This document shows, piece after piece, positions 4,864 to 58,863 of a stretch of 64,000 nt of DNA (its first letter is position 1; every line of letters starts with the position of its first letter). Source of the stretch: Candidatus Saccharimonadia bacterium (lineage in GTDB: Bacteria; Patescibacteriota; Saccharimonadia; UBA4664); assembly GCA_038245115.1 (NCBI GenBank), contig JBBRSS010000002.1:7020-71019 (forward strand). The letters are read 5' to 3'. Both the position numbers and the translations under genes were made by a program. Below the pieces are notes generated by a model. That model did not search any database. It was not told where the DNA came from and was given only the letters and a program-made list of their open reading frames with translations.

Positions 4864-6103
4864 ATCAATCAAATCCGGCGCCTATCTGGATCTCGAATCT
4901 CACTATGGCCAACACCACTTGCGGCTTCGCATCATCGCCTATATGGTCTACCGCAACCTGGTATCGCGCAAACTTCGCACATTTCTTACCGCCGCGGGTG
5001 TCCTCATTGGCATTGGCTCTATCACTTTCCTAGTTTCGCTCGGACTCGGGCTACAGAACCTAGTCTCAAAGCAAGTCATAGGCTCGAAATCCGTAACCGC
5101 TATCGACGTCACCCCACCCGCCTCGGGGATTGTCAAACTCGACTCCACTAATATCAGCAAGATCCACAGCATCGCCCATGTCAAAGATATCGCGAAAGAT
5201 TTCACGCAAGCCGGCAAAGCCACGCTCGGTGGCTCAAGCACCGATGTTGTTATCTACGGCGGCGATCAAAACTATCTCGACCTCAGCTCGCTCCACCTTG
5301 TGACCAGCGGGGGACTGACTCTCGGCCAAAACCAGATTCTTGTGAATGCCTCGCTCCTCAAGCTCATCGGCCTAGGCGACCCAGCCGGAGCTATCGGTAA
5401 AGCCCTCAAGCTAGACATACTTGTCACCAACCCCGACGGCACCAAACGCCACCTACCGGCCGACGTCACCATCAAAGGCGTAGTTGACACTGGTAGCGGC
5501 TCCGAAGTCTATATGGCCGACAGCTTTTTCAGCGCTGCCGGGCTCACCACATATGCCCAGCTCAAAGTGGTAGCCGACGATCGTGCCAACGTACCCGCCA
5601 TTCGTCAACATATCGAAGCCCTCGGCTTCAGTACAGCCTCGCCTCTAGATACCTTGGCCCAGATCGACCAAGTCTTTGTGTTCTTCAATTTCATCTTGGC
5701 CGGCTTTGGCGGCATTGGCATGCTCATTGCCGTGCTCGGTATGTTTAACACTCTCACCATTTCGCTCCTCGAACGAACTCGCGAAATCGCTCTTATGATC
5801 TCGCTTGGCGCTCGGAGGAAAGATATCCAGCGGCTATTTATCGCCGAGGCCATTGGCCTGGCTATTCTTGGCGGGGTGGCAGGACTGGTCGCATCATGGC
5901 TGCTCGGACTAGCCATCAACATTGCTCTCACCCAGCTGGCCCATGGCCGCGGCGTCAACGATACCGTTACCATCTTCAGCCTGCCCTGGTGGCTCGTGCT
6001 CGACACCCTTGGCCTTGTTATTGTGCTAGCGCTTATCGTGGTGGCATACCCGGCCTGGCGTGCTGTCCGCGTCAACCCGATTGACGCCCTGCGCCACGAA
6101 TAG
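4856..6103 (+). CDS. ABC transporter permease, FtsX/MacB family
   Basis: N-terminal TM, an extracytoplasmic domain, then 3 C-terminal TMs with an FtsX-like 'ERTREIALMISLGARRKDI' motif. AAAGGAG sits 8 nt upstream of GTG 4856; the ORF track starts at ATG 4829. Confidence 0.8.
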   Translation: MAKSIKSGAYLDLESHYGQHHLRLRIIAYMVYRNLVSRKLRTFLTAAGVLIGIGSITFLVSLGLGLQNLVSKQVIGSKSVTAIDVTPPASGIVKLDSTNISKIHSIAHVKDIAKDFTQAGKATLGGSSTDVVIYGGDQNYLDLSSLHLVTSGGLTLGQNQILVNASLLKLIGLGDPAGAIGKALKLDILVTNPDGTKRHLPADVTIKGVVDTGSGSEVYMADSFFSAAGLTTYAQLKVVADDRANVPAIRQHIEALGFSTASPLDTLAQIDQVFVFFNFILAGFGGIGMLIAVLGMFNTLTISLLERTREIALMISLGARRKDIQRLFIAEAIGLAILGGVAGLVASWLLGLAINIALTQLAHGRGVNDTVTIFSLPWWLVLDTLGLVIVLALIVVAYPAWRAVRVNPIDALRHE

Positions 6104-14163: not shown

Positions 14164-15672
14164 TTGTCGGACATGGTAAGGTCGCCTTCGATCAAACAAT
14201 ATATGTACAAAATCCCCGCCACAATTCAGCCCACCAAGATCACCGCCTTAGACGAGATACTAAAGGGCGGTATACCATATGGCTCCCTAGTATTAACCAC
14301 TGGTCCCGCTGGTGGCGGCAAGACAACCTTGGCCCAACAGTGGCTCTTCGAAGGCGCCAGACACCTAGAAGAAGTTGGTCTCTACATTTCGTTCACCGAA
14401 GAAATCGATAAAGCCATTCGTAATATCGAACAATTTGAATTTTTTGATAAATCCTACATAAAAACTGGCAAGATCTGCTTTATAGATGGCCGCACGCTAC
14501 TAATGGGCATGCCCTTTAAGCAAAAACCATCGTTTGATCTCATCGAAATGGACCAGCTACTGACCGTCATTATGAATTTGGTCGATCAAACTCAGGCCAA
14601 ACGCGTAGTGATAGATTCTATTACGGCCTTAATCTATAAGCTCGAAGGCGTCGACGCCGTCCGGAGCTTCATTTTTCGCCTTGGCTACGCTCTTTCCCGG
14701 CCCGGCGCCACCGTAATGCTCATTGGCGAGGCCGACCTCAACGCCGGCTATCAGTCGCCAGTAGAAGAGTATATTTCCGACGCCATCATCTATGTGGATA
14801 GTGGGTCTGGGCGCAACCAACAAATGCGCAAGCTCGAAGTCAAAAAAATGCGCGGCGTAAACTATCGCTCCGGCCCGGCCTATTTCGAAATCACCAATAA
14901 AGGTATCACCCTATACCCCAAAATTCCCACCTATGGACTAACCGCTTTAACCGACTTCAAAACCCGCCGCAAAACTGGCATCAAAAAGCTCGACGAAATG
15001 ATGGGCGGCGGGATCCCTCAAGGTCACATCCTACTAGTCGCTGGCAACACCGGCTCCGGCCGAACAACACTCGGCATGCACTTTCTGGAAGCCGGTATCC
15101 TTCAGGGTGAAGCCGGATTATTTGTATCTATCGACGAATCTATGACCCAAATCATCAAAACTGCCAAAGAACACGACTGGGACTTCGACAGGCACCTCAA
15201 AGATAAAATGCTGATCAACGTTCCCAGCGACCAAATTGATATTTATCCCGACAAGCTGCTTTATCAAATTGTCCGCGCTGTCGAAGACAACAACATCAAG
15301 CGAGTCGTAATAGACTCAATTTCCTCTATGGAGTCAAGCGAGTTTGCACGAGATTACGTGCGTGACTTCCTGCTGCAGTTAACAGCCTTCTTTAAAAGCC
15401 GCGGCATCAACTGCTTGGCAACCTACCTGACCACCGAGATGTTCGGCGCGCCCAACAAACAGTTGATGGGCGGCACCGTATCATCGGAACTGCAACTCAG
15501 CTCAATTGTCGACGGCATTATCCTCACTCGTTACGTGGAGCGCGACCAAGAAGTTCGCAAACTGGTCAGTATTCTCAAAATGCGCGGCTCAAACCACGAT
15601 AAGGGGATATATGAGTTCAGCATTGGTAAGGCGGGACTGATTTTGGGTAACCAGTTTAAAGATGACTTATGA
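14164..15672 (+). CDS. KaiC-like double RecA-fold ATPase
   Basis: Two RecA/KaiC modules. Walker A 'GPAGGGKTTLAQQ' in domain 1 and 'GNTGSGRTTLGMH' in domain 2 (K to R). The start is uncertain (TTG 14164, ATG 14173 or ATG 14203). Confidence 0.8.
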   Translation: MSDMVRSPSIKQYMYKIPATIQPTKITALDEILKGGIPYGSLVLTTGPAGGGKTTLAQQWLFEGARHLEEVGLYISFTEEIDKAIRNIEQFEFFDKSYIKTGKICFIDGRTLLMGMPFKQKPSFDLIEMDQLLTVIMNLVDQTQAKRVVIDSITALIYKLEGVDAVRSFIFRLGYALSRPGATVMLIGEADLNAGYQSPVEEYISDAIIYVDSGSGRNQQMRKLEVKKMRGVNYRSGPAYFEITNKGITLYPKIPTYGLTALTDFKTRRKTGIKKLDEMMGGGIPQGHILLVAGNTGSGRTTLGMHFLEAGILQGEAGLFVSIDESMTQIIKTAKEHDWDFDRHLKDKMLINVPSDQIDIYPDKLLYQIVRAVEDNNIKRVVIDSISSMESSEFARDYVRDFLLQLTAFFKSRGINCLATYLTTEMFGAPNKQLMGGTVSSELQLSSIVDGIILTRYVERDQEVRKLVSILKMRGSNHDKGIYEFSIGKAGLILGNQFKDDL

Positions 15673-17229: not shown

Positions 17230-17412
17230 GAATATATATACTGCTATTACGTTAACAACTTGAGCCCCTCGTACTTGGAAGCCGGTGAGATACCGGCGCT
17301 GTGCCGCAACTGTAATGTTACCATTGAGTAATAAGCCAGGTCGTCGTACGAGATTAATCCCGAGCAGGAGTAATATTTACTTAATCGTCACCGGGTGACG
17401 ATTTTTTATCTT
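17230..17412 (+). ncRNA. Cobalamin (B12) riboswitch-like leader with terminator
   Basis: 'GGAAGCCGGUGAGAUACCGGCGCUGUGCCGCAACUGUAA' matches the conserved cobalamin-riboswitch core (GGAA..CCrGUG..A.yCyGG.GCUG..CCGCAACUGUAA). A partial B12-box 'AAGCCAGG' follows, then an intrinsic terminator immediately before the gene. Confidence 0.5.
17383..17408 (+). terminator. Intrinsic terminator (expression-platform hairpin)
   Basis: AAUCGUCAC-cgg-GUGACGAUU perfect 9-bp stem followed by UUUUUUAUC. Confidence 0.6.
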
Positions 17413-20092: not shown

Positions 20093-22291
20093 TTGGTTGC
20101 CCCTAGCCTCATCGTTGTTTCGAACAGGCTGCCTATTAGCGTGTCCAAAGATAATGGCAAACTTGTTTACAAGTCGAGCCAGGGCGGGCTAGCTACCGCT
20201 ATGTCTTCTCTCGGTAAATCACAGGAGTATATCTGGATCGGCTGGCCCGGCATCGCCTCCGATCAGCTCACGGTCGAAGACAAAAAGAATATTCGCAAAG
20301 AGCTCACCAAACACAAATGCTACCCCGTATTTCTATCCGCGAAACAGATCGAAAATTTCTATAATGGCTACTCCAACGGCACTATCTGGCCGTTATTTCA
20401 TTATTTCCAATCCCTCACCCAACATCGAGCCGAGTATTGGGAAGAATACAAGAAAGTAAATAAGCTCTACGAAGCGGTCGTCTTAAAGTACGCCACCAAT
20501 AAGTCGACCATCTGGATCCACGATTATCATCTGATGGTGCTGCCGCAGATGTTGCGTACCGAATTGCCCGAAAGCTCCATTGGCTTCTTCCTACACACAC
20601 CGTTTCCGTCCTACGAAATTTACCGGCTCTTGCCCGACCGCAAAGAAGTTGTCGAGGGACTCATCGGCGCAGATCTGGTAGGGTTCCATACCTACGACTA
20701 CGCCCGCCATTTTCTCAGCGGCGTTTTGCGCACCCTAGGCTATGACAACAAAATGTCGTCAATTATTGTGGGTGATCGTTTAGTGCGGGCCGATGTTTTT
20801 CCGATCGGCATAGATTATGAGAAATTTGCACTTGCAGCCAAATCAGCCCCGGTTAAAACCGAAATTGCTGCCCTCAAGAAGCACTTTAACGACCAAAAGA
20901 TTGTGCTATCAGTCGACCGCTTGGATTATTCCAAGGGTATTCTTGAGCGTCTCGAGGCTTTTGACGCTTTCCTGGAGAAAAATCCCCGCTGGCACAAAAA
21001 AATTGTGCTCGTAGTTGTTGCCGTGCCGTCGCGAATTACCGTTGGCGCCTATCAGCAAATGCGCGAAGACATTGAGCGCGCCGTCAGCCGGGTCAATGGC
21101 AAGTACGCTACCGTCGACTGGTCGCCCATCTCATACCAATACAAAAACCTGCCCTTCGATGAACTAATGGCGCTCTACAGCCGGTCCGATGTCGCCCTGG
21201 TGACGCCTCTGCGCGACGGCATGAATTTAGTTGCCAAGGAATATATCGCCAGCAAACAAGGCCGCAATGGGGTACTAATTATTAGCGAAATGGCCGGCGT
21301 CGCCGATGAACTGCCCGAAGCCACCAAAGTCAACCCAAATGACCGCGCAGGAATTGTACGGGCGCTCGAAAACGCGCTCAAAATGACCCCCACCGAACAG
21401 AGGCGACGCCTGGTTGCGATGCAGAATCGGCTGTCGATGTACACCGTGGAACGCTGGGCCGAAGATTTTATCGAACAACTCACTCTGGCCAAAGCACAAC
21501 GCGCAGCCCACGACCTCAACTTCCTAACCTCTCCGGTTATGGACGAAATTGTAAAAAAATATCAGCAGGCCAAAAAACGCTTACTAATGCTCGATTACGA
21601 TGGCACCCTAACCAAATTTGTCTCCGACATCCGACCCATTTCTTCCAAACCCACCAGCAAACTTATGCGTATACTCAAGAAACTAAGTCATACTCAGGGC
21701 AACGAAGTCATGATCGTAAGCGGTCGCCCCAAGCGGGCGCTTGAGTCTTGGTTTAGCAAGCTACCGGTAGCCCTAGTTGCCGAGCATGGCGCCTGGATCA
21801 AAGATCATGGCAAATGGGTCGCACGGTCGAACTTTCCCGCCGACTGGAAAGATCCGGTATTACCGCTTCTCGAAGCCATTACTGAGCGCACTCCCGGCGC
21901 AATAATTGAAAATAAAAACTTTTCACTAGTCTGGCACTACCGCAATGTCGGTCCCGAGCTAGCCTATGTTCGCAAAGCCAACCTAAAGCATGACGTCGAG
22001 AAAAAGCTTCGTGATTCCGATATTGAAGTCTTCCAGGGCAATAAGATTCTCGAATTTAAGCCTCGGTTTATCACTAAAGGCGCCATGGTAAAACAAAAAT
22101 TATCCGAAGGCGCCTATGACTTTATCCTGGCAATCGGCGACGACTATACCGACGAAGATATGTTCGCCGCCCTGCCTGTCGGCGCCTACACCATCAAAGT
22201 TGGCATCGGCAGCTCAATTGCGCGCTACCACCTCAGCTCGGTCGAACAGGTCCACGCCTTTATTGCCAGGCTAGCCGCCTCCATTGAATAG
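20093..22291 (+). CDS. otsAB: Bifunctional trehalose-6-phosphate synthase / trehalose-6-phosphate phosphatase (OtsA-OtsB fusion)
   Basis: GT20 'HDYHLMVLPQMLR' and 'VGFHTYDYARHF'. C-terminal HAD motifs 'LLMLDYDGTLT' and 'AIGDDYTDEDMF'. Confidence 0.9.
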   Translation: MVAPSLIVVSNRLPISVSKDNGKLVYKSSQGGLATAMSSLGKSQEYIWIGWPGIASDQLTVEDKKNIRKELTKHKCYPVFLSAKQIENFYNGYSNGTIWPLFHYFQSLTQHRAEYWEEYKKVNKLYEAVVLKYATNKSTIWIHDYHLMVLPQMLRTELPESSIGFFLHTPFPSYEIYRLLPDRKEVVEGLIGADLVGFHTYDYARHFLSGVLRTLGYDNKMSSIIVGDRLVRADVFPIGIDYEKFALAAKSAPVKTEIAALKKHFNDQKIVLSVDRLDYSKGILERLEAFDAFLEKNPRWHKKIVLVVVAVPSRITVGAYQQMREDIERAVSRVNGKYATVDWSPISYQYKNLPFDELMALYSRSDVALVTPLRDGMNLVAKEYIASKQGRNGVLIISEMAGVADELPEATKVNPNDRAGIVRALENALKMTPTEQRRRLVAMQNRLSMYTVERWAEDFIEQLTLAKAQRAAHDLNFLTSPVMDEIVKKYQQAKKRLLMLDYDGTLTKFVSDIRPISSKPTSKLMRILKKLSHTQGNEVMIVSGRPKRALESWFSKLPVALVAEHGAWIKDHGKWVARSNFPADWKDPVLPLLEAITERTPGAIIENKNFSLVWHYRNVGPELAYVRKANLKHDVEKKLRDSDIEVFQGNKILEFKPRFITKGAMVKQKLSEGAYDFILAIGDDYTDEDMFAALPVGAYTIKVGIGSSIARYHLSSVEQVHAFIARLAASIE

Positions 22292-29504: not shown

Positions 29505-30080
29505 CTAGCGTACTAACCGAGCTACGCGCTCCAAGATCACATCCAGCCACCACAAGCTCACGCGGTAAGTAGTCGCCAATTCCACTAGCACTGCGTTTAC
29601 TGCCGCGTACTGGTCACCCAACCGCGCCCCGGACTCAAGCTCCGGCATCAATCCCATTCCCGCCAAGGCGCGCTCGGAGTAGTCATTCCACACCCCATAT
29701 TGCCTCGGATATGTTACCAGTAGCAGGGGAGTCAGCTTAGCTTTGCCCAGATGCGGCACCGCCAGCTCACCGCGACCGGGCTCTAGCTCATTCAGCCTAT
29801 CTGCAATCGGTCGGGTTTCATCAATCAACACCAACAAAGCCGCCCGCAGCCGCTCCATATCCACCGTCACATCATCGCGGCTAATCTCGCGCCAGCGTTT
29901 ATTTTGCTTATAGCTCAAAAACCCCGTCATATCCTGCTTAGTGAGGCTAGCGATACCCTTGGGCGAAAATATCACGCCCCAATACTGCGTAACTTCCAGC
30001 TCTTGCAGCCTTAAAGCCATTACGCTCGGCGTAGAATCACGAAAAACTGCAATCTGGGTGGTAGGAATGAGTGCGCTCAT
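29505..30080 (-). CDS. Hypothetical protein (191 aa)
   Basis: Clean ORF convergent with zwf; no motif recognised. Confidence 0.45.
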   Translation of the reverse strand: MSALIPTTQIAVFRDSTPSVMALRLQELEVTQYWGVIFSPKGIASLTKQDMTGFLSYKQNKRWREISRDDVTVDMERLRAALLVLIDETRPIADRLNELEPGRGELAVPHLGKAKLTPLLLVTYPRQYGVWNDYSERALAGMGLMPELESGARLGDQYAAVNAVLVELATTYRVSLWWLDVILERVARLVR

Positions 30081-30089
30081 CGAGCAATC

Positions 30090-30428
30090 TTACTTGCTAC
30101 TTATCATACTGGCGAGCCCTATCTGGACAATCATCAGACCCCACAAGCCCCAATACACTCTTTGGGGTAGCGATTTCTTTCGAAACGCTTCGAATAGCCC
30201 CAAAATAGCAGCGGCCAACACAATCTTCAGTACCGTCCGCCACAAGTACAAATCGTGATAATCAAGCGCTACAAGCACAAATCCGGTCAAAAACTGCGCC
30301 CGCGCGCCCATCACGGCCCAGCGCGTCGCTGTTCGCAGCTTTGAGCGCAACTGAGTCACCAGCCCCCATACAATCGCCGCCACACCCAACAAGTGCAATC
30401 CCAGAATCACTGCTCCAAATACTTCCAT
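30090..30428 (-). CDS. Hypothetical small membrane protein (3-4 TM)
   Basis: Hydrophobic helices; sits 9 nt downstream of the previous minus-strand gene. Confidence 0.4.
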   Translation of the reverse strand: MEVFGAVILGLHLLGVAAIVWGLVTQLRSKLRTATRWAVMGARAQFLTGFVLVALDYHDLYLWRTVLKIVLAAAILGLFEAFRKKSLPQRVYWGLWGLMIVQIGLASMISSK

Positions 30429-30478
30429 CTCTGTCTCCTGCTATAGATTGAATATACCGCTCATGCTAACATTTGACC

Positions 30479-30832
30479 ATGAAACAACGCCGACAGCGCC
30501 TCACGATCTGGATTGAAATCTTCATGGCCAGCCTTGTCGCCGTCAGTATGACATTCTTAGCCATCGACATCTTCGGCCATCCCAGCCCCGTTGAGAGCTT
30601 CTGGATGGAACACATCGACCTCGCAATTGCCTGCATTTTCCTGACTGAATTTATTATCCGCTTTGCCACAGCTCGCAAACCGCTCTATTTCCTCAAGGAC
30701 AACTGGTATTTATTAGTAGCCTCTATCCCGATTGCCATACCGGGGACGGAAATTTTTCGATTACTCAGGTTAGAACGCGCGCTCCGGATAATTCGCGTTT
30801 TCGATCACGCCGCCGAAGTTAGTCGCCGCTGA
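30479..30832 (+). CDS. Stand-alone voltage-sensor-domain (S1-S4) membrane protein
   Basis: Four helices. The S4-like 'RLLRLERALRIIRVF' has Arg at every third position; S2 carries an acidic 'EF' and S3 an Asp. No pore domain. ATG 30479; the track begins at TTG 30473. Confidence 0.55.
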   Translation: MKQRRQRLTIWIEIFMASLVAVSMTFLAIDIFGHPSPVESFWMEHIDLAIACIFLTEFIIRFATARKPLYFLKDNWYLLVASIPIAIPGTEIFRLLRLERALRIIRVFDHAAEVSRR

Positions 30833-32191
<1,359 letters not shown>

Positions 32192-32276: not shown

Positions 32277-32483
32277 ATGGATATCGTCACCGTCGGTGAA
32301 CGTGGCCAGGTCGTAATTCCTGCTGCCATTCGGGACAGTATTGGCGTCAAATCTGGCGATAAGCTAATGGCCTTTACTAAGCACGACGAGATCATCTGTC
32401 TTGCCCCCGCCACCAGCATGCGTAAACTCGTCAGCATCCTCACCGAACAGCTTGCCGATATCGAATCATCCGAACAAAATTAA
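32277..32483 (+). CDS. AbrB/MazE/SpoVT-family DNA-binding protein
   Basis: 'VGERGQVVIPAAIRDSIGVKSGDKL' swapped-hairpin motif. Start uncertain; the track ORF starts at TTG 32199. Confidence 0.45.
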   Translation: MDIVTVGERGQVVIPAAIRDSIGVKSGDKLMAFTKHDEIICLAPATSMRKLVSILTEQLADIESSEQN

Positions 32484-32503: not shown

Positions 32504-34090
32504 ATGCTCCATCATCTTAGCGGCCGCGCCAAGGCCGGTATCCTTATTAGTGTCATCGCGGGTATGCTGCTCTCGGCATTGGATCAAACCATTGTCTCCA
32601 CCGCCATGCCCAAAATCTTAACCGACCTCAAAGGCTTCACCGAACTTAGCTGGGTCGTTGCAGCGTATCTTATCGCCCAAGCCGTTGCCGTACCTATTAC
32701 CTCAAAACTGTCCGACATCTACGGCCGCAAAGTTCTATTCTTCTTTAATGTCATCATTTTCCTCATTGGCTCCGTTCTCTGCGGCATCTCGCCCAGCATG
32801 ACCTGGCTCATAGCTGCCCGCGCCCTTCAGGGCGTCGGGGGAGGAGGCCTAGCCGCCGGTGCCTTTACCATCATTGCCGACATCTTCCCGCCCCGTGAGC
32901 GCGGCAAGTGGACCGGCCTCATTGCCGCCACTTTCGGTCTCGCCTCGGTCATCGGGCCGCTCCTCGGCGGCTACCTCACCGACAACCTTAGCTGGCGCTG
33001 GGTCTTCTTCGTTAACATTCCGGTAGGTATGCTTGCTCTCACCATTGCCTGGTTCGCCCTACCCAACATCAAACAGGACGCTCGAGGAGTGATCGACTGG
33101 CTGGGCTCGTTCACTATGGCCGGCACGGTTATTCCGTTCCTGCTCGCGCTCATCTGGGGCGGCACCAAATACGCCTGGAATTCGCCACAGATAATAACCT
33201 TCTTCGCCATCGCAGCCGTCATGCTAGTAGCCTTCATTGCCGTTGAGCGCCACGCCGCCGACCCTATCCTGCCCCTGAGACTCTTCAAAGTTCCCGGGTT
33301 TGCCCTGGTTAACTTAGTGATCGTCCTGTCTGCTGCCTTGCTATTCGGCGGCATCGTTTATATTCCGGTCTTCATGCAAACCGTGCTCGGCAAGAGCGCC
33401 ACCAACTCGGGCCTCCTGCTTCTGCCTCTCATGGCAGGTATCGTCATTGCCAGTATTGTTTCGGGCCAGCTCACCTCCCGCACCGGTAAAACCCGCATCA
33501 TAGGGATTGTTGGACTGTCCATCGCCACAATTGCTCTCTACCTCCTCTCCAGGCTTACCGCCGATACCTCCAGCACCACCATTAGCTGGGAAATGGTCCT
33601 GCTCGGTCTGGGCATCGGACCTAGCCTCCCGTTGATGCCCTTGATTGCTCAGAACCTCTTCAGCCCGGTCGATATCGGCGTAGTCACGGGTGCTACCACC
33701 TTCTTCCGCACCGTCGGAGGCGCCATCGGCACCGCTATTCTCGGGACTATCTTCAACAACCACCTTTCGGCCAGTCTGGGTAATTTGCCGACTTTTCAGC
33801 TCCCCCCACAGCTCGTCGCCACCCTGTCTGATCCCAATATCATCGCTTCAAATACCGCCACCGCCAACGTACTTAGCCACATTCCGCCGGCCGCCCTCCC
33901 GGCACTTCAGCCCCAAATAAATGCCTTCCTGCTTCTCACCAAAAGCTCCATTGCTAGCAGTATCGCCATTGTGTTTACCGCCTGCATGGCCCTCGCCGGT
34001 GTCTCGCTCGTGCTGTTCTACCTCATTGAAGAAAAAGAACTCCGCACCTCAAATGCCCCGGTCCATAATGCCGCCGATCCGGCTCTATAA
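32504..34090 (+). CDS. MFS transporter, DHA2 family (14 TM)
   Basis: '[11 protein letters not shown]' and '[10 protein letters not shown]' motifs. Confidence 0.85.
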
Positions 34091-34477
34091 AGCTGCTTGA
34101 GCCTGCGCCAAATCGTCGAGAATAATCTTCGCCTCAACCTCATCTATCGGAGTTAGATCTCGGCGTTGCGCCAGCACAATATCATCTTCGCGAATCAAAT
34201 AGTGTTTAAAGTAATCACCCTCGTCGATATTCGCTGTAATCTCTATGAGCCACTCAAATGGCGGCCTCGCCCCCGGAGCCGTCTTGGCTACCCGCATCCG
34301 GCCATCCGGCCATTTCACCTCGAATTCTCTGGTCATCACCGGGTCACCGTCGAGTTCCATCGCAAAATCACTCGCGCGTACATCACGATGCTTCTTGGCG
34401 GTTGCCATAAACTTTTCGGCCGCCGTCACAATTTGGTCATAACGCGTTCTATCGACTCCTGGTCCGATTTCTCTCAT
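34085..34477 (-). CDS. Hypothetical protein (130 aa)
   Basis: Clean ORF; no motif. Confidence 0.45.
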
Positions 34478-34482
34478 ACTAC

Positions 34483-34872
34483 CTATTTCCTCTTAGCCAA
34501 ACTATCGCGAATCTGTTCCAACACTTCCAATTGGGGGTCCATCGGCGTCGGCTCCTTTTCCTTGCCGCTATGCATCCGTACCATCAGCGCATTCAGCGGT
34601 TTTACCACAAAGAAGAACACTACCGCGGAAATAATCACAAACGAAATTAATGCGTTCAAAAATGAGCCGTACATAATTTTACTGTGGTTAATATTAAAAA
34701 ATAGCCCACTGAAATCCGGCGTACCGCCAATCGCCGCAATCAGGGGAGTAATCAAATCTTTCACCATCGAAGTCACCACCGACCCAAAAGCCGCCCCAAT
34801 CACCACGGCCACAGCCAAATCAACCACATTTCCGCGGAGTAAAAACGCTTTAAAATCGTTTAACATGGCCAC
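34483..34872 (-). CDS. mscL: Large-conductance mechanosensitive channel
   Basis: 'FKAFLLRGNVVDLAVAVVIGAAFG'. AAGGAA RBS. Confidence 0.85.
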   Translation of the reverse strand: MAMLNDFKAFLLRGNVVDLAVAVVIGAAFGSVVTSMVKDLITPLIAAIGGTPDFSGLFFNINHSKIMYGSFLNALISFVIISAVVFFFVVKPLNALMVRMHSGKEKEPTPMDPQLEVLEQIRDSLAKRK

Positions 34873-38929: not shown

Positions 38930-39084
38930 CAATTCAATAGTCATATCAAGAGTGCAGTTAGGGATCTAGCCCGTTAACCTGCCGGCAACCCCATCCAAGG
39001 ATGGTAGGTGCTACTTCTAGCCCGCAAGGGAAGATATGTAGGCAAACCGCCTTTCTTCACTTAGCCGGGAGAAAGGTTTTTTTA
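38930..39084 (+). ncRNA. SAM-I (S-box) riboswitch with terminator, controlling metK
   Basis: 'AUAUCAAGAGUGCAGUUAGGGAUCUAGCCCGUUAACCUGCCGGCAACC...GGUGCUACUUCUAGCCCGCAAGGGAAGAU' matches the S-box core (AUCAAGAG..AGGGA..GCCC..AA.C..GCAACC). A CCUUUCU/AGAAAGG hairpin plus U7 sits immediately before the metK ATG. Confidence 0.75.
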
Positions 39085-51724: not shown

Positions 51725-53161
51725 ATGCAGCCAAACGGCGAACGCAAACTTATTATCAGTTTCCGCCTCGAACACCTGCTGGGGTGGGGGATTACTATTG
51801 CGCTGTGTCTCGTCCCGGCCATAATGTGGGCTCAAATCCACCCTCTCAACCAAATTCGCGGCTTTTCCGGCGTCATGCTCAGCCTCGGTCGGGTCACCGG
51901 CTTGGTCGGACTTGTCCTATACGCCCTGAATCTGGTGTATTCCACCAGGCTACGCTTTCTCGAACCCTTATTTGGCGGCCTCAACCGCGTCTACATCGCT
52001 CACCACATCCTGGGCGGCCTCGCCCTCATTTTGTTGTCATTTCACCCTGTCCTATTATCCCTGCGCTATATCACCAAAATATCCCTATCTTCGCCCTATA
52101 TTGCCGGCTCATTCCATCAGGCCGCCCTGGTTCTATTGCCCAACGGCCTTACGCCCGTTAATGCCCTATTTAACACTCACCTCGACAACCACGCGATTGT
52201 CCTCGAACAATGGGCCCTGCTCTTTGGCATTATCGCCTTCTGGGGCATGGTTGTTCTGTTATTAGTGACGTTCTTCATCAAAATTCCTTACCGCATCTGG
52301 ATAGTGACTCACCGCTTTTTGGGAGCTGCCTTCTTTTTTGCCGGCCTTCACGTACTATTTATTACCAGCGACGTCAGCACCCACCCGGGGCTCAAATACT
52401 ACATTCTTGGCTTTACCGCCATCGGCCTGCTGGCATTTACCTACAAAACGTTATCCGGCAAAATTCTCATCCGTAAACACCGCTACGTCGTTAAGTCCGT
52501 CCAGGTCAACGGCGGCAATGTCACCCAGATAACCATGTCGCCCGAAAACCGCCCCATGATGTACAAAAGCGGCCAATTTATTTTCATTCACTTCCTTAAC
52601 GCCCACGCCCTAGGTATTAGTTCCGAGTGGCACCCGTTCTCGATTTCGTCAGGCTCAAACGATGCTAACCTCCAGGTCAGCATTAAGGGGCTCGGGGACT
52701 TTACCAACAAGTTGGGTGCGCTCAAACCGGGCATTATTGCCGAAGTTGAAGGCGCTTATGGCAAATTTACTTACTCCAACTATCATAATCTCAACCAAAT
52801 CTGGATCGCCGGCGGCATCGGGATTGCCCCGTTCGTCTCGATGGCTCGCAGCCTACCGGCCAGCGGATTTCGGATTGACCTCTATTATTCGGTCAAAACC
52901 ACCAGCGAGATTATCGACTGGCAGACCCTGGTTGATGTCGCCACCGCCACCAAGGGCTACTTTCGAGTCATTCCCTACATTGCCGACCAACAACAAGGCT
53001 ACCTGACCGCCGACTTCATCGAGGCGACAAGCCATGGCCTCACCGGCAAAGATATTTTCATTTGCGGACCGCCCGCAATGATGAAGTCGATGCACAATCA
53101 AATGCGGGCCAAAGCCATCCCTGGAACCAGCATTCATACCGAAGAGTTTGCAATGTCATGA
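51725..53161 (+). CDS. NOX/ferric-reductase (FRE)-type transmembrane flavocytochrome (6 TM bis-heme domain + FAD- and NAD(P)H-binding FNR-like domain)
   Basis: His pairs spaced 13 apart in two helices ('AHHILGGLALILLSFH', 'HRFLGAAFFFAGLH'). 'HPFSISS' FAD motif, 'GGIGIAPF' NAD(P)H motif, C-terminal 'ICGPPAMM'. Confidence 0.8.
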   Translation: MQPNGERKLIISFRLEHLLGWGITIALCLVPAIMWAQIHPLNQIRGFSGVMLSLGRVTGLVGLVLYALNLVYSTRLRFLEPLFGGLNRVYIAHHILGGLALILLSFHPVLLSLRYITKISLSSPYIAGSFHQAALVLLPNGLTPVNALFNTHLDNHAIVLEQWALLFGIIAFWGMVVLLLVTFFIKIPYRIWIVTHRFLGAAFFFAGLHVLFITSDVSTHPGLKYYILGFTAIGLLAFTYKTLSGKILIRKHRYVVKSVQVNGGNVTQITMSPENRPMMYKSGQFIFIHFLNAHALGISSEWHPFSISSGSNDANLQVSIKGLGDFTNKLGALKPGIIAEVEGAYGKFTYSNYHNLNQIWIAGGIGIAPFVSMARSLPASGFRIDLYYSVKTTSEIIDWQTLVDVATATKGYFRVIPYIADQQQGYLTADFIEATSHGLTGKDIFICGPPAMMKSMHNQMRAKAIPGTSIHTEEFAMS

Positions 53162-53176
53162 CTTACGAGGTGATAT

Positions 53177-53935
53177 ATGTGGCTTAAGAAAAGTGTTGGC
53201 TTCGCAATGATTATTACCTGCGTTCTGCTAAACACGCTGGTGCTAATGGGCATATTTATTCCCGATAAGCTGCCGCCCGCCATTGCGCTACCGATTGAGG
53301 CCCCCGTAGCCGTAGTGGTCCCGCCCCCGACGGTAAACCTAGTTGCCACCCCGAGCAGCATCACGGCGGGCGGCTACAGTGCCCTCAGTTGGACGACTGG
53401 CGGCAACGTCTCCGGTTGCACCGCCTCGGGAAATTGGACCGGCTCCAAAACCGCCTTCGGCACCGAAAGCACCGGCCGCATTTCCAAAGCGGGTAACTAT
53501 ACCTACACAATGGAATGCCTCAACAGCGGCGGATCGGTCAAAACCTCAGCCGTTGTTACTGTGGGTAACGCTATTGCTCCGCCCAAAGCTGCCCCCATCA
53601 CGGTTTCAACCGGCGGGACAGTCTATTGCGGCGGCCGCACCCCATGCTACAGCCCCAGAGAAGTCGCCACTCACACTTCCTCCAGCAATTGTTGGGGCTG
53701 GAACCTCGACCGCGTTATTAATCTGTCCGGGTTTGATTCCGGCTTCCACGTTGTTAAAAGTGGCATCAGCTCGATTGCTATTAGTTCGATCTGCGGCAAG
53801 GACCTTTCTTCGTCACTATCCGGTCAGGTGGCTGCCGAAGGCCAAACCCGCAATCACAATGCCACCACCAAGCAAAATGCCGATAACAACATGCGCCCGT
53901 ATTTTGTCGGCTACCTCGACGCCGCTAAACCCTAA
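53177..53935 (+). CDS. TM-anchored surface protein: one Ig-like Cys-pair repeat + degenerate cytochrome b5-like C-terminal domain (paralogue of 55038..57470)
   Basis: N-terminal TM, then a 'SALSWTTGGNVSGCTASGNWTG...YTYTMECLN' repeat. The C-terminal 'NCWGWNLDRVINLSGF' aligns to the b5-like domain of the paralogue, but HPGG is replaced. Confidence 0.55.
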   Translation: MWLKKSVGFAMIITCVLLNTLVLMGIFIPDKLPPAIALPIEAPVAVVVPPPTVNLVATPSSITAGGYSALSWTTGGNVSGCTASGNWTGSKTAFGTESTGRISKAGNYTYTMECLNSGGSVKTSAVVTVGNAIAPPKAAPITVSTGGTVYCGGRTPCYSPREVATHTSSSNCWGWNLDRVINLSGFDSGFHVVKSGISSIAISSICGKDLSSSLSGQVAAEGQTRNHNATTKQNADNNMRPYFVGYLDAAKP

Positions 53936-53947
53936 TCAGGAATCAAC

Positions 53948-54466
53948 ATGAAATTTCCTAAGTTCACCCCCCGCAACCGCCCCGCCGCCACCTATACGGC
54001 CGGCCTGATTATGCTTGGCTTGGCCGCGATCCTGCTGACGCTCACGCTCTTTACTCAACACCAAAACCGCCGAACCAGCCCACCCCAAACCGCCTATGCC
54101 AACGGCCAACTCGTCGCAATGGGCAGTGCTGCCGTCAAAATCAACCGAGTGACCTATAGCGAGGGCAAGGCGACCTTCCCGATTCCGCCGGGCCAACACT
54201 ACGTCATTGTCGACCTATCCGTCGCCAACACCAGCGACAAACCCATCAACATCTTGCCGGCCAGCGATATCTACCTCAAGACCGCTACTGGTGAAGTATC
54301 CTATTTGACCCCCTACGAACTCAACCAACCGTTCCGCGCCGGAGAGCTCTTGCCGGGTGAAACCATTCGCGGACAAATTAGCTATGCCGCGTCAAAAACT
54401 GCCCCAACCAAACTTTACGTCGACGGAATCTGGAGCGGGGGAGTTATTCCGTTCTCGCTGCGTTGA
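53948..54466 (+). CDS. DUF4352-like TM-anchored extracytoplasmic protein
   Basis: N-terminal TM followed by a beta-rich domain ('HYVIVDLSVANTSDKPINILP...YL.TATGE.Y'); paralogous to 54530..55030 and 57485..58045. Confidence 0.55.
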   Translation: MKFPKFTPRNRPAATYTAGLIMLGLAAILLTLTLFTQHQNRRTSPPQTAYANGQLVAMGSAAVKINRVTYSEGKATFPIPPGQHYVIVDLSVANTSDKPINILPASDIYLKTATGEVSYLTPYELNQPFRAGELLPGETIRGQISYAASKTAPTKLYVDGIWSGGVIPFSLR

Positions 54467-54529
54467 ACACCTATACCAGTTATGCTAAAATCCTATCAAT
54501 ATCCGTCATAAGAGTGAAGAAATAATCCG

Positions 54530-55030
54530 ATGACCTTGGCCAAACACGATCATCTCTACAAAGCAGCGCACATCAGTGTCGCCTCATCGGTTGGTGTATT
54601 AATTGTAGCTACTATCATGCTCAATTCGTTTACTACGCCGCACCACGGCAACGTGCTAAGTCAAACAACAGCCGCCAATCGAACGGCTCGCACCGCCGCC
54701 TATGCTCTGACCATTAAGGACGTCACCCAGGCCCCGACCGACTCGGTATCTGGCCTCAAACGCGTTACCGTAGCCTTAAACATCGATAATTTAACCTCGG
54801 ATATCATCCAGATCTCCCCCGGACTCCAGATGTTCCTGCGCACCAGCACCGGCCAACAATATAATCTGACCGCCAAATACCTTGCCCCCGGTATCGACAT
54901 TGGCGGCCCCGTGGCAGCCGGAGCCCAAACATCGCTCAACGTCGACTTTGACCTCCCAGCTAGCTCAACACCTACGACGTTTATATACCAACCAGATGCC
55001 GGCAGCACGCCGAGCCAAATCAAACTCTAG
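54530..55030 (+). CDS. DUF4352-like TM-anchored extracytoplasmic protein
   Basis: Same architecture ('VTVALNIDNLTSDIIQISPGLQMFLRTSTGQQY'). Confidence 0.5.
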   Translation: MTLAKHDHLYKAAHISVASSVGVLIVATIMLNSFTTPHHGNVLSQTTAANRTARTAAYALTIKDVTQAPTDSVSGLKRVTVALNIDNLTSDIIQISPGLQMFLRTSTGQQYNLTAKYLAPGIDIGGPVAAGAQTSLNVDFDLPASSTPTTFIYQPDAGSTPSQIKL

Positions 55031-55037
55031 GATCGTT

Positions 55038-57470
55038 ATGGACCCCGTTGTTATTACCCTCAATGAACCAAGCTCACCGATACCTCTGCCTGGGCCGCCA
55101 AAACTGGGGCCCAAGGGAACGAAATTTTTGCTCGGAATATCTACGGTCATAATTAGCCTCACAATTTTGGCTTTTAGCGTCTACACAGTTCTCGTTAACA
55201 ACCAGAAATTTCGACAATCCACTGGCCTGGCTGTACCCACCCCCATTCAAACTACCGGCAATACCAAAAGCTCGGCCAGCCTACCTGGCGGTGGTATTGC
55301 CGTGGGCACCGGCGGCAATACCGGCACCAATAGTCCTGTTATCACCCTCACGTCTAACCCGGCCTCAGTTGTCGCCGGCGGCAAAGCCACCCTCACCTGG
55401 AGCGTTACCAATAATCCAACCTCATGCACGGCCAGCGATGACTGGTCCGGCACTAAGCCGACCAAAGGCTCCGAACCCACTCCATCGTTGACAATCGTTC
55501 AGACCTACTTGTTTACTCTGACATGCAAAAACGCCACCGGCACCGGATTTGCCACCGTCGGAGTTGGCGCAACAGATCAAGGCGGTAGCGGTACGGCTTC
55601 GCGGCCAATAGTTAGCCTAGCCGCCACCCCTACCTCGCTCTACACCGGCGATAGTTCAACTCTGAGCTGGAGTGTCACCAATAACCCCAGCTCCTGCACC
55701 GCTTCCGGCAACTGGAGCGGCATCAAATCCGGCACCGGCACGGCTAGCACCGGAGCCCTGACCGCCGCCAAAACTTATACCTACACCCTGTCTTGTAGCA
55801 ATTCCGGCGGCAACGGCTATGCTACCGCCACCGTTGCGGTGGTCGACCCGCCGCCCAACTTGCCGATTGTGTCGCTCTCCAGCAACCCGGTAGGACCGGT
55901 CACCCCCGGCACGGCTGTTACCCTCACCTGGGCAGTCACCAATACCCCCAGTTCCTGTATCGCTACGGGCGACTGGACAGGCGCCAAAGCCACCGGCGGC
56001 GGGTCGCAGGCCATGGGCGCTCTGAACACCATCAAGTCCTACACCTACACAATAAGTTGCAGCAACAGCACCGGCAGCACCATAGACACGGCGGTTATCC
56101 AAGTATTACCTAACGCACCCGTAGTCTCACTCTCGGTTAGTCCGAATTCTATATTTGTTGGCGGCACCGCCATTGTCACCTGGAGCGCCACCAATACCCC
56201 CACCTCTTGTACCGCTAGCGGCGATTGGACCGGCGCCAAAGCGGCCAGCGGCAGCGCCGGCACCGGCGCTCTTAATACCGCAAAAACCTACCTGTATAGC
56301 TTATCCTGCACCAACGCTGGCGGTACGGGCTTTGCCAACAACGTCGCCCTCAGCGTCACTGTCCCGCCCGCACCCGTAGTATCACTCTCGGCTAATCCAA
56401 TTTCTATTACTACTGGCGGCAGCTCAACGCTCACCTGGAGCGCCACCAATAACCCCACCTCTTGTACCGCTAGCGGCGATTGGACGGGCGCCAAATCGGC
56501 CAGCGGCACGCAAAACACCGGGGCACTGACTACGGTCAAAACTTATAGCTACTCCCTAGTTTGTAGCAATGCCGGCGGCAGCAATACCGCCAATACCACC
56601 GTAAACGTAGCTTCCGGGACCGCCCCTGCCGTCACGCCGATAGTTACCATCTCGGTATCTCCCGCTAGCATCGGCACCGGCAGCAGTGCCACCTTAAGCT
56701 GGAGCGCCACCAACAACCCCAGCTCGTGTACGGCCTCCGGATCCTGGAGCGGGGCCAAGGCCGGCAGCGGCAGCACCAATACCGGCGCCATGCCAACGGC
56801 TGGGACTTTCACCTATACGCTGGCCTGTAGCAATACCGCCGGGACCAATACAAAATCAGCCGTTCTCACCGTACTTGCCGTACCTGTGGTCAGCATCTCG
56901 GTAGCGCCCGCCTCTATCAACACCGGCAGCGCCGCCACGGTCACCTGGAGCGCCACGGCCAGTCCCACCAGCTGCACCGCCAGCGGTTCGTGGAGCGGTT
57001 CAAAAGCTGCTTCCGGCAGCGTTAGCACCGGAGCCATTGCGAGTGCCGGATCTTACACCTACACATTATCTTGCACCAATACCGGCGGCTCCGGCTCCAA
57101 CTCAGCTACCCTAACCGCCACCAACCCAGCCCCCGTGTACTGTGGCGGCAATACCCCTTGTTACGGCGTCACCGACGTGGCCGGTCATGCATCAGTCGGC
57201 AACTGCTGGGGCTGGAATCTCAACCGAGTCATCAATATCACCGGTTTCCGGCCTAAGCACCCTGGCGGCCAGCAAACCGGATCGCTCGAAAGTGCCACCT
57301 CCAGCTGCAACCGTGACCTTCACGCCATCCTCGTCGGCAGTGCCGCCATTACCGGCTACAAAGACAGCGGCGGCTCGACCACCCACAACCACACCAAGGG
57401 CGGCGCCAACAATACTGCAAGCTCGATTCTTTCCTACCTAGTCGGGTACTGGGACGCAACCAAACCGTAA
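55038..57470 (+). CDS. TM-anchored surface protein with 7 tandem Ig-like Cys-pair repeats and a C-terminal cytochrome b5-like heme-binding domain
   Basis: ATG 55038 follows the upstream stop; the track ORF 54882 is a read-through. N-terminal TM 'FLLGISTVIISLTILAFSVYTVLV'. Seven ~85-aa repeats of the form 'TL(T/S)WS.TN.P(T/S)SCTASG.W(T/S)G.K...YTY(T/S)L.C(T/S)N'. C-terminal 'VTDVAGHASVGNCWGWNLNRVINITGFRPKHPGG...CNRDLHAIL' matches the cyt b5 fold, including HPGG and a second His. Confidence 0.7.
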   Translation: MDPVVITLNEPSSPIPLPGPPKLGPKGTKFLLGISTVIISLTILAFSVYTVLVNNQKFRQSTGLAVPTPIQTTGNTKSSASLPGGGIAVGTGGNTGTNSPVITLTSNPASVVAGGKATLTWSVTNNPTSCTASDDWSGTKPTKGSEPTPSLTIVQTYLFTLTCKNATGTGFATVGVGATDQGGSGTASRPIVSLAATPTSLYTGDSSTLSWSVTNNPSSCTASGNWSGIKSGTGTASTGALTAAKTYTYTLSCSNSGGNGYATATVAVVDPPPNLPIVSLSSNPVGPVTPGTAVTLTWAVTNTPSSCIATGDWTGAKATGGGSQAMGALNTIKSYTYTISCSNSTGSTIDTAVIQVLPNAPVVSLSVSPNSIFVGGTAIVTWSATNTPTSCTASGDWTGAKAASGSAGTGALNTAKTYLYSLSCTNAGGTGFANNVALSVTVPPAPVVSLSANPISITTGGSSTLTWSATNNPTSCTASGDWTGAKSASGTQNTGALTTVKTYSYSLVCSNAGGSNTANTTVNVASGTAPAVTPIVTISVSPASIGTGSSATLSWSATNNPSSCTASGSWSGAKAGSGSTNTGAMPTAGTFTYTLACSNTAGTNTKSAVLTVLAVPVVSISVAPASINTGSAATVTWSATASPTSCTASGSWSGSKAASGSVSTGAIASAGSYTYTLSCTNTGGSGSNSATLTATNPAPVYCGGNTPCYGVTDVAGHASVGNCWGWNLNRVINITGFRPKHPGGQQTGSLESATSSCNRDLHAILVGSAAITGYKDSGGSTTHNHTKGGANNTASSILSYLVGYWDATKP
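55332..57135 (+). repeat. Seven tandem ~255-bp coding repeats (Ig-like modules)
   Basis: Periodic protein repeats with two conserved Cys each; the DNA period is ~255 bp. Confidence 0.7.
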
Positions 57471-57484
57471 TTTAAGGACATATT

Positions 57485-58045
57485 ATGAACAAAATCCACC
57501 ATCGACACTTCCAAATACGAGACCATTTTATGAGCTGGGCCGGAGTGCTTACCGCCTTAATAGTTCTGCTCATTATCAACGCCACCTACATTTCAAGCCG
57601 CATCACACACGACAATCCGCTGCCCACACCACGCATAATTCCAAACTCAAATTATATACTGACCTCACTTCAGACTGACGAAACCAAGGCATATTCACTC
57701 AGCGTTAGCAACGTCACCGAGAATTCCAATTTCGACCCCGCCTTCACAATCGATCCCACCCACACCATGCTGATCATGGATGTTTCAATCACCAACCATT
57801 CGGCCGGCAAACAAGATCTCACTCCGACAACGCAATTCTACGTCCGAGACCGCGAAGGTGACACCTTCGTAATGCACCCTTCGATCCGAATAACGAACCC
57901 GCTTGCGGCAACATCCATTGGGGCTGGCCAAACGGTTAAGGGGCAAATCTCCTTCGACGTTCCCAAAAAACTAGCCCACCCGCTGCTTTACGTTGATTTT
58001 GGCTGGAACGATCTAGCTCCCACCGTTATCGACGTCCTGAAATAG
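57485..58045 (+). CDS. DUF4352-like TM-anchored extracytoplasmic protein
   Basis: 'HTMLIMDVSITNHSAGKQDLTPTTQFYVRDREGDTF'; third paralogue. Confidence 0.5.
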   Translation: MNKIHHRHFQIRDHFMSWAGVLTALIVLLIINATYISSRITHDNPLPTPRIIPNSNYILTSLQTDETKAYSLSVSNVTENSNFDPAFTIDPTHTMLIMDVSITNHSAGKQDLTPTTQFYVRDREGDTFVMHPSIRITNPLAATSIGAGQTVKGQISFDVPKKLAHPLLYVDFGWNDLAPTVIDVLK

Positions 58046-58863
58046 TGACTACTCCCTCGTCATCGACAACCGCCAAGCTAACTGCCCTCCTCGACGAGTT
58101 TAACGGGGACGTTGAGGCCGCCGAACAAGCCTTGCGCGACCTCAACAAATTCAATCAACGAGCACAAACTCCCGACATCGACCGATCCGGCGCCGCTGTC
58201 GTTGTGGCCCTCAAAAATGTCAATCGGGTATACAAACTGGGCCACAATAAAGTGGGGGCGATAAATGATGCCACTCTCGAAATCCGCCAAGGGGAGTTCG
58301 TGGCTATCACCGGCCCCAGCGGTTCCGGCAAAAGCACCCTGCTCAATCTTATCGGCGGACTCGACAAGCCCGACAGCGGATCGGTCCAAGTCGATAACCA
58401 CGACCTCGCCAAACTCAGCGACCGCAAACTATCCGTCTTCCGCAACACTACCGTCGGTTTTGTCTTCCAGTTTTTCTACCTTCAGCCGTTTTTAAGCGTC
58501 CGGACCAACCTGGCCGTACCGGGGATGTTTTCGCACCTACCGCGTGCCCAGCGAGACACTCGCATAACCGAGCTTGCCGAAGCCGTTGGCCTCACCGACC
58601 GCCTGGATCACTTGCCCAAAGAACTCTCCGGCGGCCAAATGCAGCGCGCCGCCATAGCCCGCGCCCTGCTCAATCGGCCCAAGATAATTCTGGCCGACGA
58701 ACCCACCGGCAATGTCGACCGGGCCAACGCCCGAGCCATTATCGACCTCTTCTCCAAGGTCCGTGACACCTACGACACCACTGTCATCATCGTTACGCAT
58801 GATCCGGAAGTCGCCTCGCAGGCCGACCGCACTATCGCACTAAGAGACGGGAAAATTATCTAA
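58045..58863 (+). CDS. ABC transporter ATP-binding protein (MacB/LolD-like) with ~55-aa N-terminal extension
   Basis: '[12 protein letters not shown]', '[15 protein letters not shown]', '[11 protein letters not shown]'. GTG start overlaps the upstream stop. Confidence 0.85.

Follow-up and report, generated by a model that had tools for sequence, protein, structure and literature searches.

A pore-less voltage-sensor protein encoded in a Candidatus Saccharimonadia genome and the stand-alone family to which it belongs

The stretch of DNA considered here, hereafter the window, comprises 64,000 nucleotides of a Candidatus Saccharimonadia genome (contig JBBRSS010000002.1, positions 7,020 to 71,019), and its subject is a small gene encoding a voltage-sensor domain (VSD), helices S1-S4, without the pore that usually follows. 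The open reading frame (ORF) runs on the plus strand from an ATG at 30479 to a TGA ending at 30832 and encodes 117 amino acids; gene calling on a second, independent assembly of this organism starts at the same ATG. The original prediction, made by reading the sequence, had placed a 119-aa protein here. Its coordinates hold and its length does not, since 119 residues would require a TTG start at 30473, and the stop lies 9 codons after the ‘...RVF’ that closes S4, not 15 codons beyond S4 as had been counted. The enolase gene eno (Pfam E=1e-127) starts at 30908, 75 bp past the stop and next to the sensor gene as predicted, which leaves no room for a pore. The gene has the GC content of its neighbours, both overall and at third codon positions (GC3), and horizontal acquisition as judged from composition was accordingly rejected. 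The features of the gene are as follows.

30479..30832, plus strand: complete gene, stop included, for the 117-aa pore-less voltage-sensor-domain protein, S1-S4 only (ORF, Pfam, dN/dS, AlphaFold model (AF2))
30503..30574, plus strand: S1 helix, residues 9-32 (AF2 helix 2-32)
30587..30670, plus strand: S2 helix, residues 37-64 (AF2 helix 37-64)
30701..30742, plus strand: S3 helix, residues 75-88, with the family motif N-W-Y-L-L-V-A-S-I-P (BacNav and KvAP alignments)
30749..30802, plus strand: S4 helix, residues 91-108, with five Arg at every third position (sequence)
30803..30817, plus strand: post-S4 cytoplasmic motif D109-H110-x-x-E113 (family consensus G-[E/D]-H-x-x-[Y/F])

The product matches the Pfam family Ion_trans (PF00520) at 40.8 bits (cut-off 25; E=1.9e-10), and the match covers only positions 3-112 of the 241 in the profile, which is the S1-S4 half. 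A phmmer search of the Protein Data Bank (PDB) returned the sensors of NavCt, NavRh and NaChBac, and a profile made from 42 family members had the KvAP sensor as its first match (E=1.7e-10). AlphaFold models reached a predicted local distance difference test (pLDDT) score of 71 with six sequences and of 86.4 with 42, the latter with a predicted template-modelling score (pTM) of 0.73 and four helices. When this fold was compared with the PDB using Foldseek, the top 50 matches were all VSDs; the isolated KvAP sensor led (probability 0.97-0.98), and the Ci-VSP sensor (probability 0.93-0.97) and NavAb were among the others. Individual Foldseek E-values are weak (0.1-2), as expected for a helical bundle of 117 residues, and the VSD assignment is made because sequence and fold evidence combine. 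The protein is thus a member of the VSD superfamily, closest to KvAP-type sensors, as the S1-S4 reading of the original prediction had it. An unrelated four-transmembrane (4-TM) family was rejected because Pfam, PDB sequence, family-profile and fold matches all point to VSDs and to no other 4-TM family. The N- and C-termini of the four-helix protein are both cytoplasmic.

The possibility that the gene is the front end of a broken channel was addressed in the DNA itself. Searches by tblastn with 28 pore modules taken from six-transmembrane (6TM) relatives found none in any frame of the window (best E=0.08) and none in ten other stand-alone loci (L001-L008, L013, L014), with positive controls detected at six loci at E 1e-27 to 1e-32. 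No K+ filter motif is present anywhere in the six frames of the window. Five orthologues, 59-89% identical and 102-122 aa long, stop at the same residue. Comparison with one of them, at locus L001, gave proportions of non-synonymous and synonymous differences (pN and pS) of 0.13 and 0.75 and a ratio of the corresponding substitution rates (dN/dS) of ~0.03, with dS saturated. A frameshifted or truncated channel, which the original prediction had also set aside, is rejected on the strength of the common stop, the dN/dS ratio and the absence of a pore in any frame. The gene is complete and under selection, and its product is a voltage-sensor protein without a pore.

It is also not alone. An exhaustive HMMER search over 1.84 billion cluster representatives (E<=1e-3) gave 471 matches; about two thirds of the best 150 are 100-165 aa long with nothing past S4, and the remainder of those 150 are mostly 6TM K+ channels of 205-290 aa with a TVGYGD filter. 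Around 90 distinct stand-alone clusters of 100-165 aa can be recognised. GTDB genomes and JGI metagenomes were scanned with a single S3 peptide pattern, supplemented by context look-ups, and 28 complete stand-alone genes (those of the window and L001 included) were read in the DNA. They encode 113-147 aa and end in in-frame stops inside contigs; 9 full 6TM channels came from the same scans. The named source genomes are all Candidatus Saccharibacteria, Saccharimonadia or Saccharimonadales and the others are unclassified metagenome-assembled genomes, a taxonomic picture which, like the locus scans, is biased by the single S3 pattern toward Saccharibacteria-like sequences. The enolase of the window is 72-82% identical to enolases from genomes under those names, which makes the window part of a Saccharibacteria (TM7, Patescibacteria) genome. 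In a neighbour-joining tree of the sensor region (~130 columns) the stand-alone proteins group in large, pure clades, one with 48 representatives and another with 21, and the five-member clade of the window protein has no reliable placement relative to the main stand-alone clade. Short members are labelled ‘hypothetical protein’ or ‘voltage-gated potassium channel’ in the databases, and a 221-aa 6TM relative is labelled ‘ion transporter’. We conclude that the window protein belongs to a conserved family of bacterial pore-less sensors, maintained by purifying selection in Candidatus Saccharibacteria, and that its nearest relatives are the S1-S4 modules of KvAP-like 6TM K+ channels from the same clade.

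Three further groups of proteins were seen in these searches. A second stand-alone clade (P0027, P0048, P0058, P0063, P0074 and 16 others) consists of proteins of 127-163 aa with the S3 motif NWLNxxSSIP, an Asn at the S3 countercharge position, a nearly full run of S4 Arg (4.7 of 5) and no His past S4. Eight bacterial proteins of ~260 aa (P0059, P0103, P0111, P0112, P0121, P0131, P0134, P0152) join an N-terminal S1-S4 to a helical, non-pore C-terminal domain, for which Pfam gave no convincing match and two weak sub-threshold ones in the five C-termini searched (P0059, P0103, P0112, P0121, P0152); these may be another class of bacterial pore-less sensor-coupled proteins. Finally P0009, a 468-aa protein closely related to the stand-alone sensors (E=3e-23), carries two complete 6TM K+ channel repeats in tandem, with two sensors and two TVGYGD pores, in one polypeptide.

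Conservation was quantified on a family alignment of 99 stand-alone proteins and 44 6TM relatives, in which the stand-alone clade of the window protein (group A) contributes 53 sequences. Residue equivalences were taken from the profile alignment for KvAP, from hhalign for human Hv1 and from HMMER alignments for the bacterial sodium channels (BacNav). In S1, Glu13 marks the inner end and is Glu in 43 of the 45 group A sequences with a residue there; Ser23, mid-membrane and opposite Hv1 Asp112, is Ser in 88% of stand-alone proteins; and the outer end carries Asp30, a position that is acidic in 85%. The second helix, which does contain the string FLTEFIIRF quoted in the original prediction, carries the outer countercharge Asp47 (KvAP D62; acidic in 96% of stand-alone proteins vs 100% of 6TM relatives), the charge-transfer-centre aromatic Phe54 (Hv1 F150; Phe in 89% vs 100%), the inner countercharge Glu57 (KvAP D72, Hv1 E153; acidic in 99% vs 98%) and Arg61, equivalent to KvAP R76 and Hv1 K157. 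The S4 string RLLRLERALRIIRVF was likewise quoted correctly, with its Arg at every third residue (R94, R97, R100, R103 and R106). S4 as a whole reads FRLLRLERALRIIRVF and has no Trp; Glu91, in the S3-S4 turn before it, is conserved in the window's clade. The five Arg are kept in 92%, 96%, 65%, 88% and 69% of stand-alone members, respectively. Basic residues at the five positions average 4.2 in the window's clade and 4.7 in the second stand-alone clade, compared with 4.1 for 6TM channels, and at the third Arg position (R3) the window's clade has Gly in 12 and Ser in 4 of its 53 sequences, about 30% together. The sensing machinery is thus conserved at least as well as in real channels.

The inner face of the sensor has a different character. 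There is no acidic residue in S3 of the window protein: Leu78 sits opposite KvAP E93 (Shaker D316), the canonical inner S3 countercharge, the roles of which have been reviewed (PMC7059764), and the S3 Asp of BacNav falls in an insertion that the window protein does not have. An acid is found at position 78 in 19% of stand-alone proteins vs 70% of 6TM relatives (Fisher p=8e-9) and never in the window's clade. The Asp of FLKDNWY (D74), put forward in the original prediction as a countercharge, is Gly, Gly or His in three of five aligned orthologues and hence is not conserved. An acid in S3 is common in the superfamily, not absolute, and its loss leaves membership standing. Beyond S4, position 110 is the most discriminating column of the alignment (Jensen-Shannon score, JS, 0.74): it is His in 48 of the 51 sequences of the window's clade that have a residue there and in 2 of the 44 6TM relatives; over all stand-alone proteins the figure is 55%, vs 5% of 6TM channels (p=2e-9). 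An aromatic residue three positions past the His is conserved in the window's clade. The tail itself is short, with 9 residues after S4, or 11 after the last S4 Arg, where the clade median counted from that Arg position is 15. The post-S4 His motif is the signature that tells stand-alone from channel-borne sensors, and the family has lost the inner acid of S3 and gained an inner-face set made up of Glu13, His110 and the aromatic at His+3.

The sensor gene occupies a variable slot in an otherwise syntenic block with the order 6PGD, G6PD, a 191-aa gene (minus strand), the slot, eno, a MazE-like gene, MFS and MscL. The contents of the slot, and the second small gene that it holds in the window, are these.

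Slot in the window: 112-aa membrane-protein gene and sensor gene
Slot in L001: sensor gene and two small ORFs
Slot in L018 (enolase 86% identical): an unrelated 98-aa 2-TM protein, 5477-5773
Slot in L020 and L021 (enolase 82% identical): nothing, 5900-6000
30090-30428, minus strand: 112-aa 4-TM membrane-protein gene, this strain only

Since the contents differ among relatives, the sensor gene is an accessory at this position, and this stretch between the 191-aa gene and eno forms a hot spot for genes of small membrane proteins. The original prediction had also linked the sensor to the divergent 112-aa gene. That functional link was rejected, as the 112-aa gene occurs neither at the orthologous locus L001 nor at any other; its product has only sub-threshold Pfam matches and no match in NCBIfam or PADLOC. 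Across the 28 loci (neighbour clustering of 20 loci and seven further contexts) there is no universal neighbour gene, and the recurrent contexts are a cluster encoding a NOX-like enzyme (3 loci) and a pore-only channel (1 locus). A role in a defence system was rejected for want of a PADLOC match.

Other genes of the block deserve brief mention. The 191-aa gene (29505-30080, minus strand) adjoins G6PD in all syntenic relatives (window, L001, L018, L020/L021), with or without the sensor gene, and it too has only sub-threshold Pfam matches and none in NCBIfam or PADLOC. Downstream of eno all syntenic relatives keep a MazE/AbrB-like small protein (32277-32483), a DHA2-family MFS efflux permease (32504-34090), a 130-aa protein (34085-34477, minus strand) and MscL (34483-34872, minus strand). 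Elsewhere in the window, an AdoCbl riboswitch (17268-17352) and a SAM-I riboswitch (38940-39040) score above the Rfam gathering thresholds, which is notable for a reduced Patescibacteria genome, and neither the KaiC homologue (14164-15672, E=1e-92) nor the fused trehalose-6-phosphate synthase/phosphatase (20093-22291) is typical of the smallest TM7 genomes.

At three loci (L002, L005 and L023) the sensor gene comes immediately after a cluster encoding a NOX-like enzyme (Pfam Ferric_reduct, FAD_binding_8 and NAD_binding_1), a cytochrome-b5-like protein and a DUF4352 protein. Each of the four genes of L002 abuts or overlaps the next, and in L005 and L023 the gap between the cluster and the VSD gene is 106 and 123 nt, respectively. 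The window has such a cluster as well, at 51725..54466 on the plus strand, 21 kb from the sensor gene, and it is a candidate functional partner of the sensor.

51725-53161, plus strand: NOX-like transmembrane NAD(P)H oxidoreductase (Pfam; 43-52% identical to its L002 and L005 counterparts)
53177-53935, plus strand: membrane-anchored cytochrome-b5-like protein (similar to those of the L002 and L005 clusters)
53948-54466, plus strand: DUF4352 protein (Pfam)

The NOX-like and b5-like genes of the window are followed by further DUF4352 genes (54530-55030 and 57485-58045), by an 862-aa protein with repeated Ig-like modules and a second b5-like domain at its end (54882-57470), and, after the last DUF4352 gene, by ABC/FtsX genes (58045-60770). 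The region 51725-58045 looks like an extracellular electron-transfer or redox module of a TM7 genome.

S4 probably still moves with the membrane potential. In the scheme that we favour there is no pore to gate and the sensor would have its own gating pore as output: on depolarisation, protons or small cations would find a pathway open across the S1-S4 bundle, in the manner of Hv1, HCNL1 and the isolated sensor of Shaker, with an inner mouth formed by His110 and Glu13. Such conduction on depolarisation is a serious possibility, if one that we hold to be a little short of probable. It is suggested because isolated sensors conduct ions without any mutation, as those of Shaker, CatSper3 and sNHE do (PMC10651576, PMC12332018), because the inner face has been remodelled by loss of the S3 acid and conservation of His110 and Glu13, and because R3 is Gly or Ser in a good part of the window's clade, the kind of substitution that opens omega currents in NavAb (PMC13095418). 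The adjacency to NOX-like genes is a further reason, as it parallels the pairing of Hv1 with NOX2. The role of the pathway might then be to dissipate the charge and acid that accumulate when a NOX-like oxidoreductase exports electrons electrogenically, a suggestion made because this enzyme is encoded directly upstream of the sensor gene in some relatives and is carried in the window too. Taken to its full extent, this would make the family the first natural bacterial pore-less sensors acting as self-contained voltage-gated H+ or cation pathways that offset the charge moved by NOX-family electron exporters, an independent counterpart of Hv1-NOX in which a Kv-type sensor would have a His-based inner mouth instead of the Asp filter of Hv1. 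We regard that complete picture as speculative and, on balance, doubtful.

Several observations weigh against the favoured scheme. The selectivity Asp of Hv1 is replaced by Ser23 and the S4 Trp is absent, and an unbroken run of Arg, of which the window protein has five, seals the gating pore in canonical sensors (PMC10651576). Only 3 of the 28 loci have the NOX-like cluster next to the sensor gene, and these three are related (their VSDs are 50-59% identical) and may reflect one or two events; L004, L006 and L007, of the same sub-clade, do not show this adjacency, and in the window the cluster is 21 kb off. The gene is, moreover, dispensable at its slot, where relatives with 82-86% identical enolase have another small gene or nothing.

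Of the alternatives, the one that fares best is that the protein is the sensor subunit of a split channel, born by fission of a 6TM K+ channel, which would pair in trans with a pore-only (2TM) K+ channel made from its own gene, or with some other membrane protein, and confer voltage dependence on it. We think this unlikely, while giving it appreciable weight. It is supported by locus L042 (254-954), where a typical family member lies convergent (tail-to-tail), on the opposite strand and 2 bp away from the gene for a 105-aa pore-only K+ channel, the pore of which has a TVGYGD filter, belongs to PF07885 and shares 33-47% identity with the pore modules of 6TM channels in the family; yet this is the only one of 28 loci with a pore gene nearby, there being none in the 64-kb window or within ~6 kb at other loci. 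A KCNH channel cut between S4 and S5 keeps its voltage gating (PMC4389246) and VSD-only and pore-only proteins are able to co-assemble (bioRxiv 10.64898/2026.08.07.743441), but the window protein ends with a 9-residue tail and no S4-S5 linker. An origin by fission is in keeping with the 6TM K+ channels of the same clade being the closest relatives, although the split-channel model does not explain why the S3 acid was lost and His110 gained.

It is less likely again that the protein is a non-conducting sensor, in which a voltage-driven S4 would signal to a partner through the cytoplasmic [E/D]-H-x-x-[Y/F] tail or a lipid-facing surface. The NOX-like enzyme is one conceivable target, and the arrangement would be comparable to TMEM266, or to a voltage-sensing phosphatase (VSP) sensor with its effector in trans. 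The conserved gating charges and charge-transfer centre would suit this role, as would the new conserved cytoplasmic motif, though a tail of 9 residues offers very little signalling surface. The full R1-R5 run of the window protein favours a sealed gating pore. Adjacency to the NOX cluster at three loci is equally compatible with regulation, but most loci share no conserved neighbour, and no partner has been identified; the ~260-aa bacterial relatives, which fuse the same sensor to a non-pore C-terminal domain, count in its favour. The last alternative, a functionless N-terminal piece of a 6TM channel decaying after its pore was lost by deletion or frameshift, is effectively refuted and can be given hardly any credence: the closest relatives are indeed full 6TM K+ channels and close relatives do lack the gene at the same slot, but a dN/dS of ~0.03, a stop common to orthologues, dozens of diverged stand-alone clusters in large pure clades, a family-specific motif past S4 and the lack of a pore relic in any frame all speak against it, and a gene-calling or assembly artefact is countered by the 28 loci read in DNA. 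We would therefore rank conduction through the sensor's own gating pore first, followed by a trans-acting sensor subunit, a non-conducting sensor and a remnant.

Reviews published in 2013, 2023 and 2024 know of no pore-less VSDs in bacteria (PMC3607825, PMC10377628, PMC13095418), Hv channels have been stated to be absent from bacteria and archaea (PMC10377628, PMC13095418), and a search for bacterial relatives of Hv1 gave only distant similarity to TolQ/MotA (PMC6768053). We found no description of bacterial pore-less VSDs in the searchable full-text literature, which does not extend to subscription-only papers. Pore-less sensors are already known in eukaryotes (Hv1, VSP and TMEM266), and the sequences of the stand-alone family are already in the databases under automatic labels. 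The channel literature nevertheless takes the absence of such proteins from prokaryotes as fact and builds on it, a premise that a bacterial family of ~120-aa sensors changes. For the question of modular origins, the family supplies real sequences to be placed in trees: stand-alone sensors could preserve or recreate the free-standing module postulated to have fused with 2TM pores into 6TM channels, and under that reading the sensor and pore genes of L042 would be a living example of the two-gene state. As a natural voltage sensor of very small size, the protein also lends itself to structural and biophysical studies and perhaps to the design of voltage indicators. Its occurrence suggests some unrecognised way in which the ultra-small, episymbiotic TM7 bacteria sense or control their membrane potential. 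Should the NOX link hold, the use of a VSD-only protein to balance the charge of transmembrane electron transfer would have evolved twice.

Among known systems, the closest comparison is with the KvAP-type 6TM channels of Saccharibacteria (220-233 aa; L009-L012, L015, L016), whose S1-S4 module is homologous to the stand-alone sensors and shares with them the S3 motif NW[YW]xLLA[SA]IP, the Phe and acids of S2 and the Arg repeat of S4. Unlike these channels, the window protein has no S4-S5 linker, S5, P-loop or S6, and the stand-alone sensors have lost the inner S3 acid and have a conserved His past S4. Membership of the KvAP-type Kv channels was rejected because there is no S5-P-S6 or T-V-G-Y-G filter and the stop falls 9 residues past S4. 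Eukaryotic Hv1/VSOP is likewise a pore-less S1-S4 protein, with F150, E153 and K157 aligning with Phe54, Glu57 and Arg61 of the window protein, and the partnership of Hv1 with NOX2 (PMC10377628) is echoed by the possible NOX-family link of the bacterial sensors. The two differ at the selectivity position (Asp112 vs Ser23) and in S4, where the window protein has five Arg and no Trp and Hv1 has three Arg in a signature, R-x-W-R-x-x-R, with an invariant and required Trp (PMC10377628). The C-terminal coiled-coil dimerisation domain of Hv1 is also missing from the window protein, and hhalign gave a probability of 13% for the pair, a weak similarity. Membership of the Hv1 family was rejected on the S1 Asp, the S4 Trp and the coiled coil, and the ‘Hv1-like’ identity offered in the original prediction finds no support in the sequence.

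The isolated VSD of Shaker (iVSD) and those of KvAP, CatSper3 and sNHE also consist of S1-S4 alone and end soon past S4, but these are laboratory truncations, whereas the window protein is the product of a natural gene under purifying selection with its own C-terminal motif. TMEM266 (HVRP1, C15orf27) is another VSD without a pore; it is eukaryotic, falls in the Hv1/VSP branch and has a long cytoplasmic C-terminus. Musset et al. reportedly noted in 2011 that the residue of TMEM266 at the selectivity position of Hv1 is not acidic. Elsewhere TMEM266 is referred to as a functional voltage sensor (PMC13095418). In split KCNH channels (Kv10.1, Kv11.1) sensor and pore are separate polypeptides by artificial construction; L042 offers such a pair of genes in nature, unlike the window, which has no pore gene within its 64 kb. 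By functional analogy, and not by membership, the window protein may work like Hv1 or the isolated Shaker sensor.

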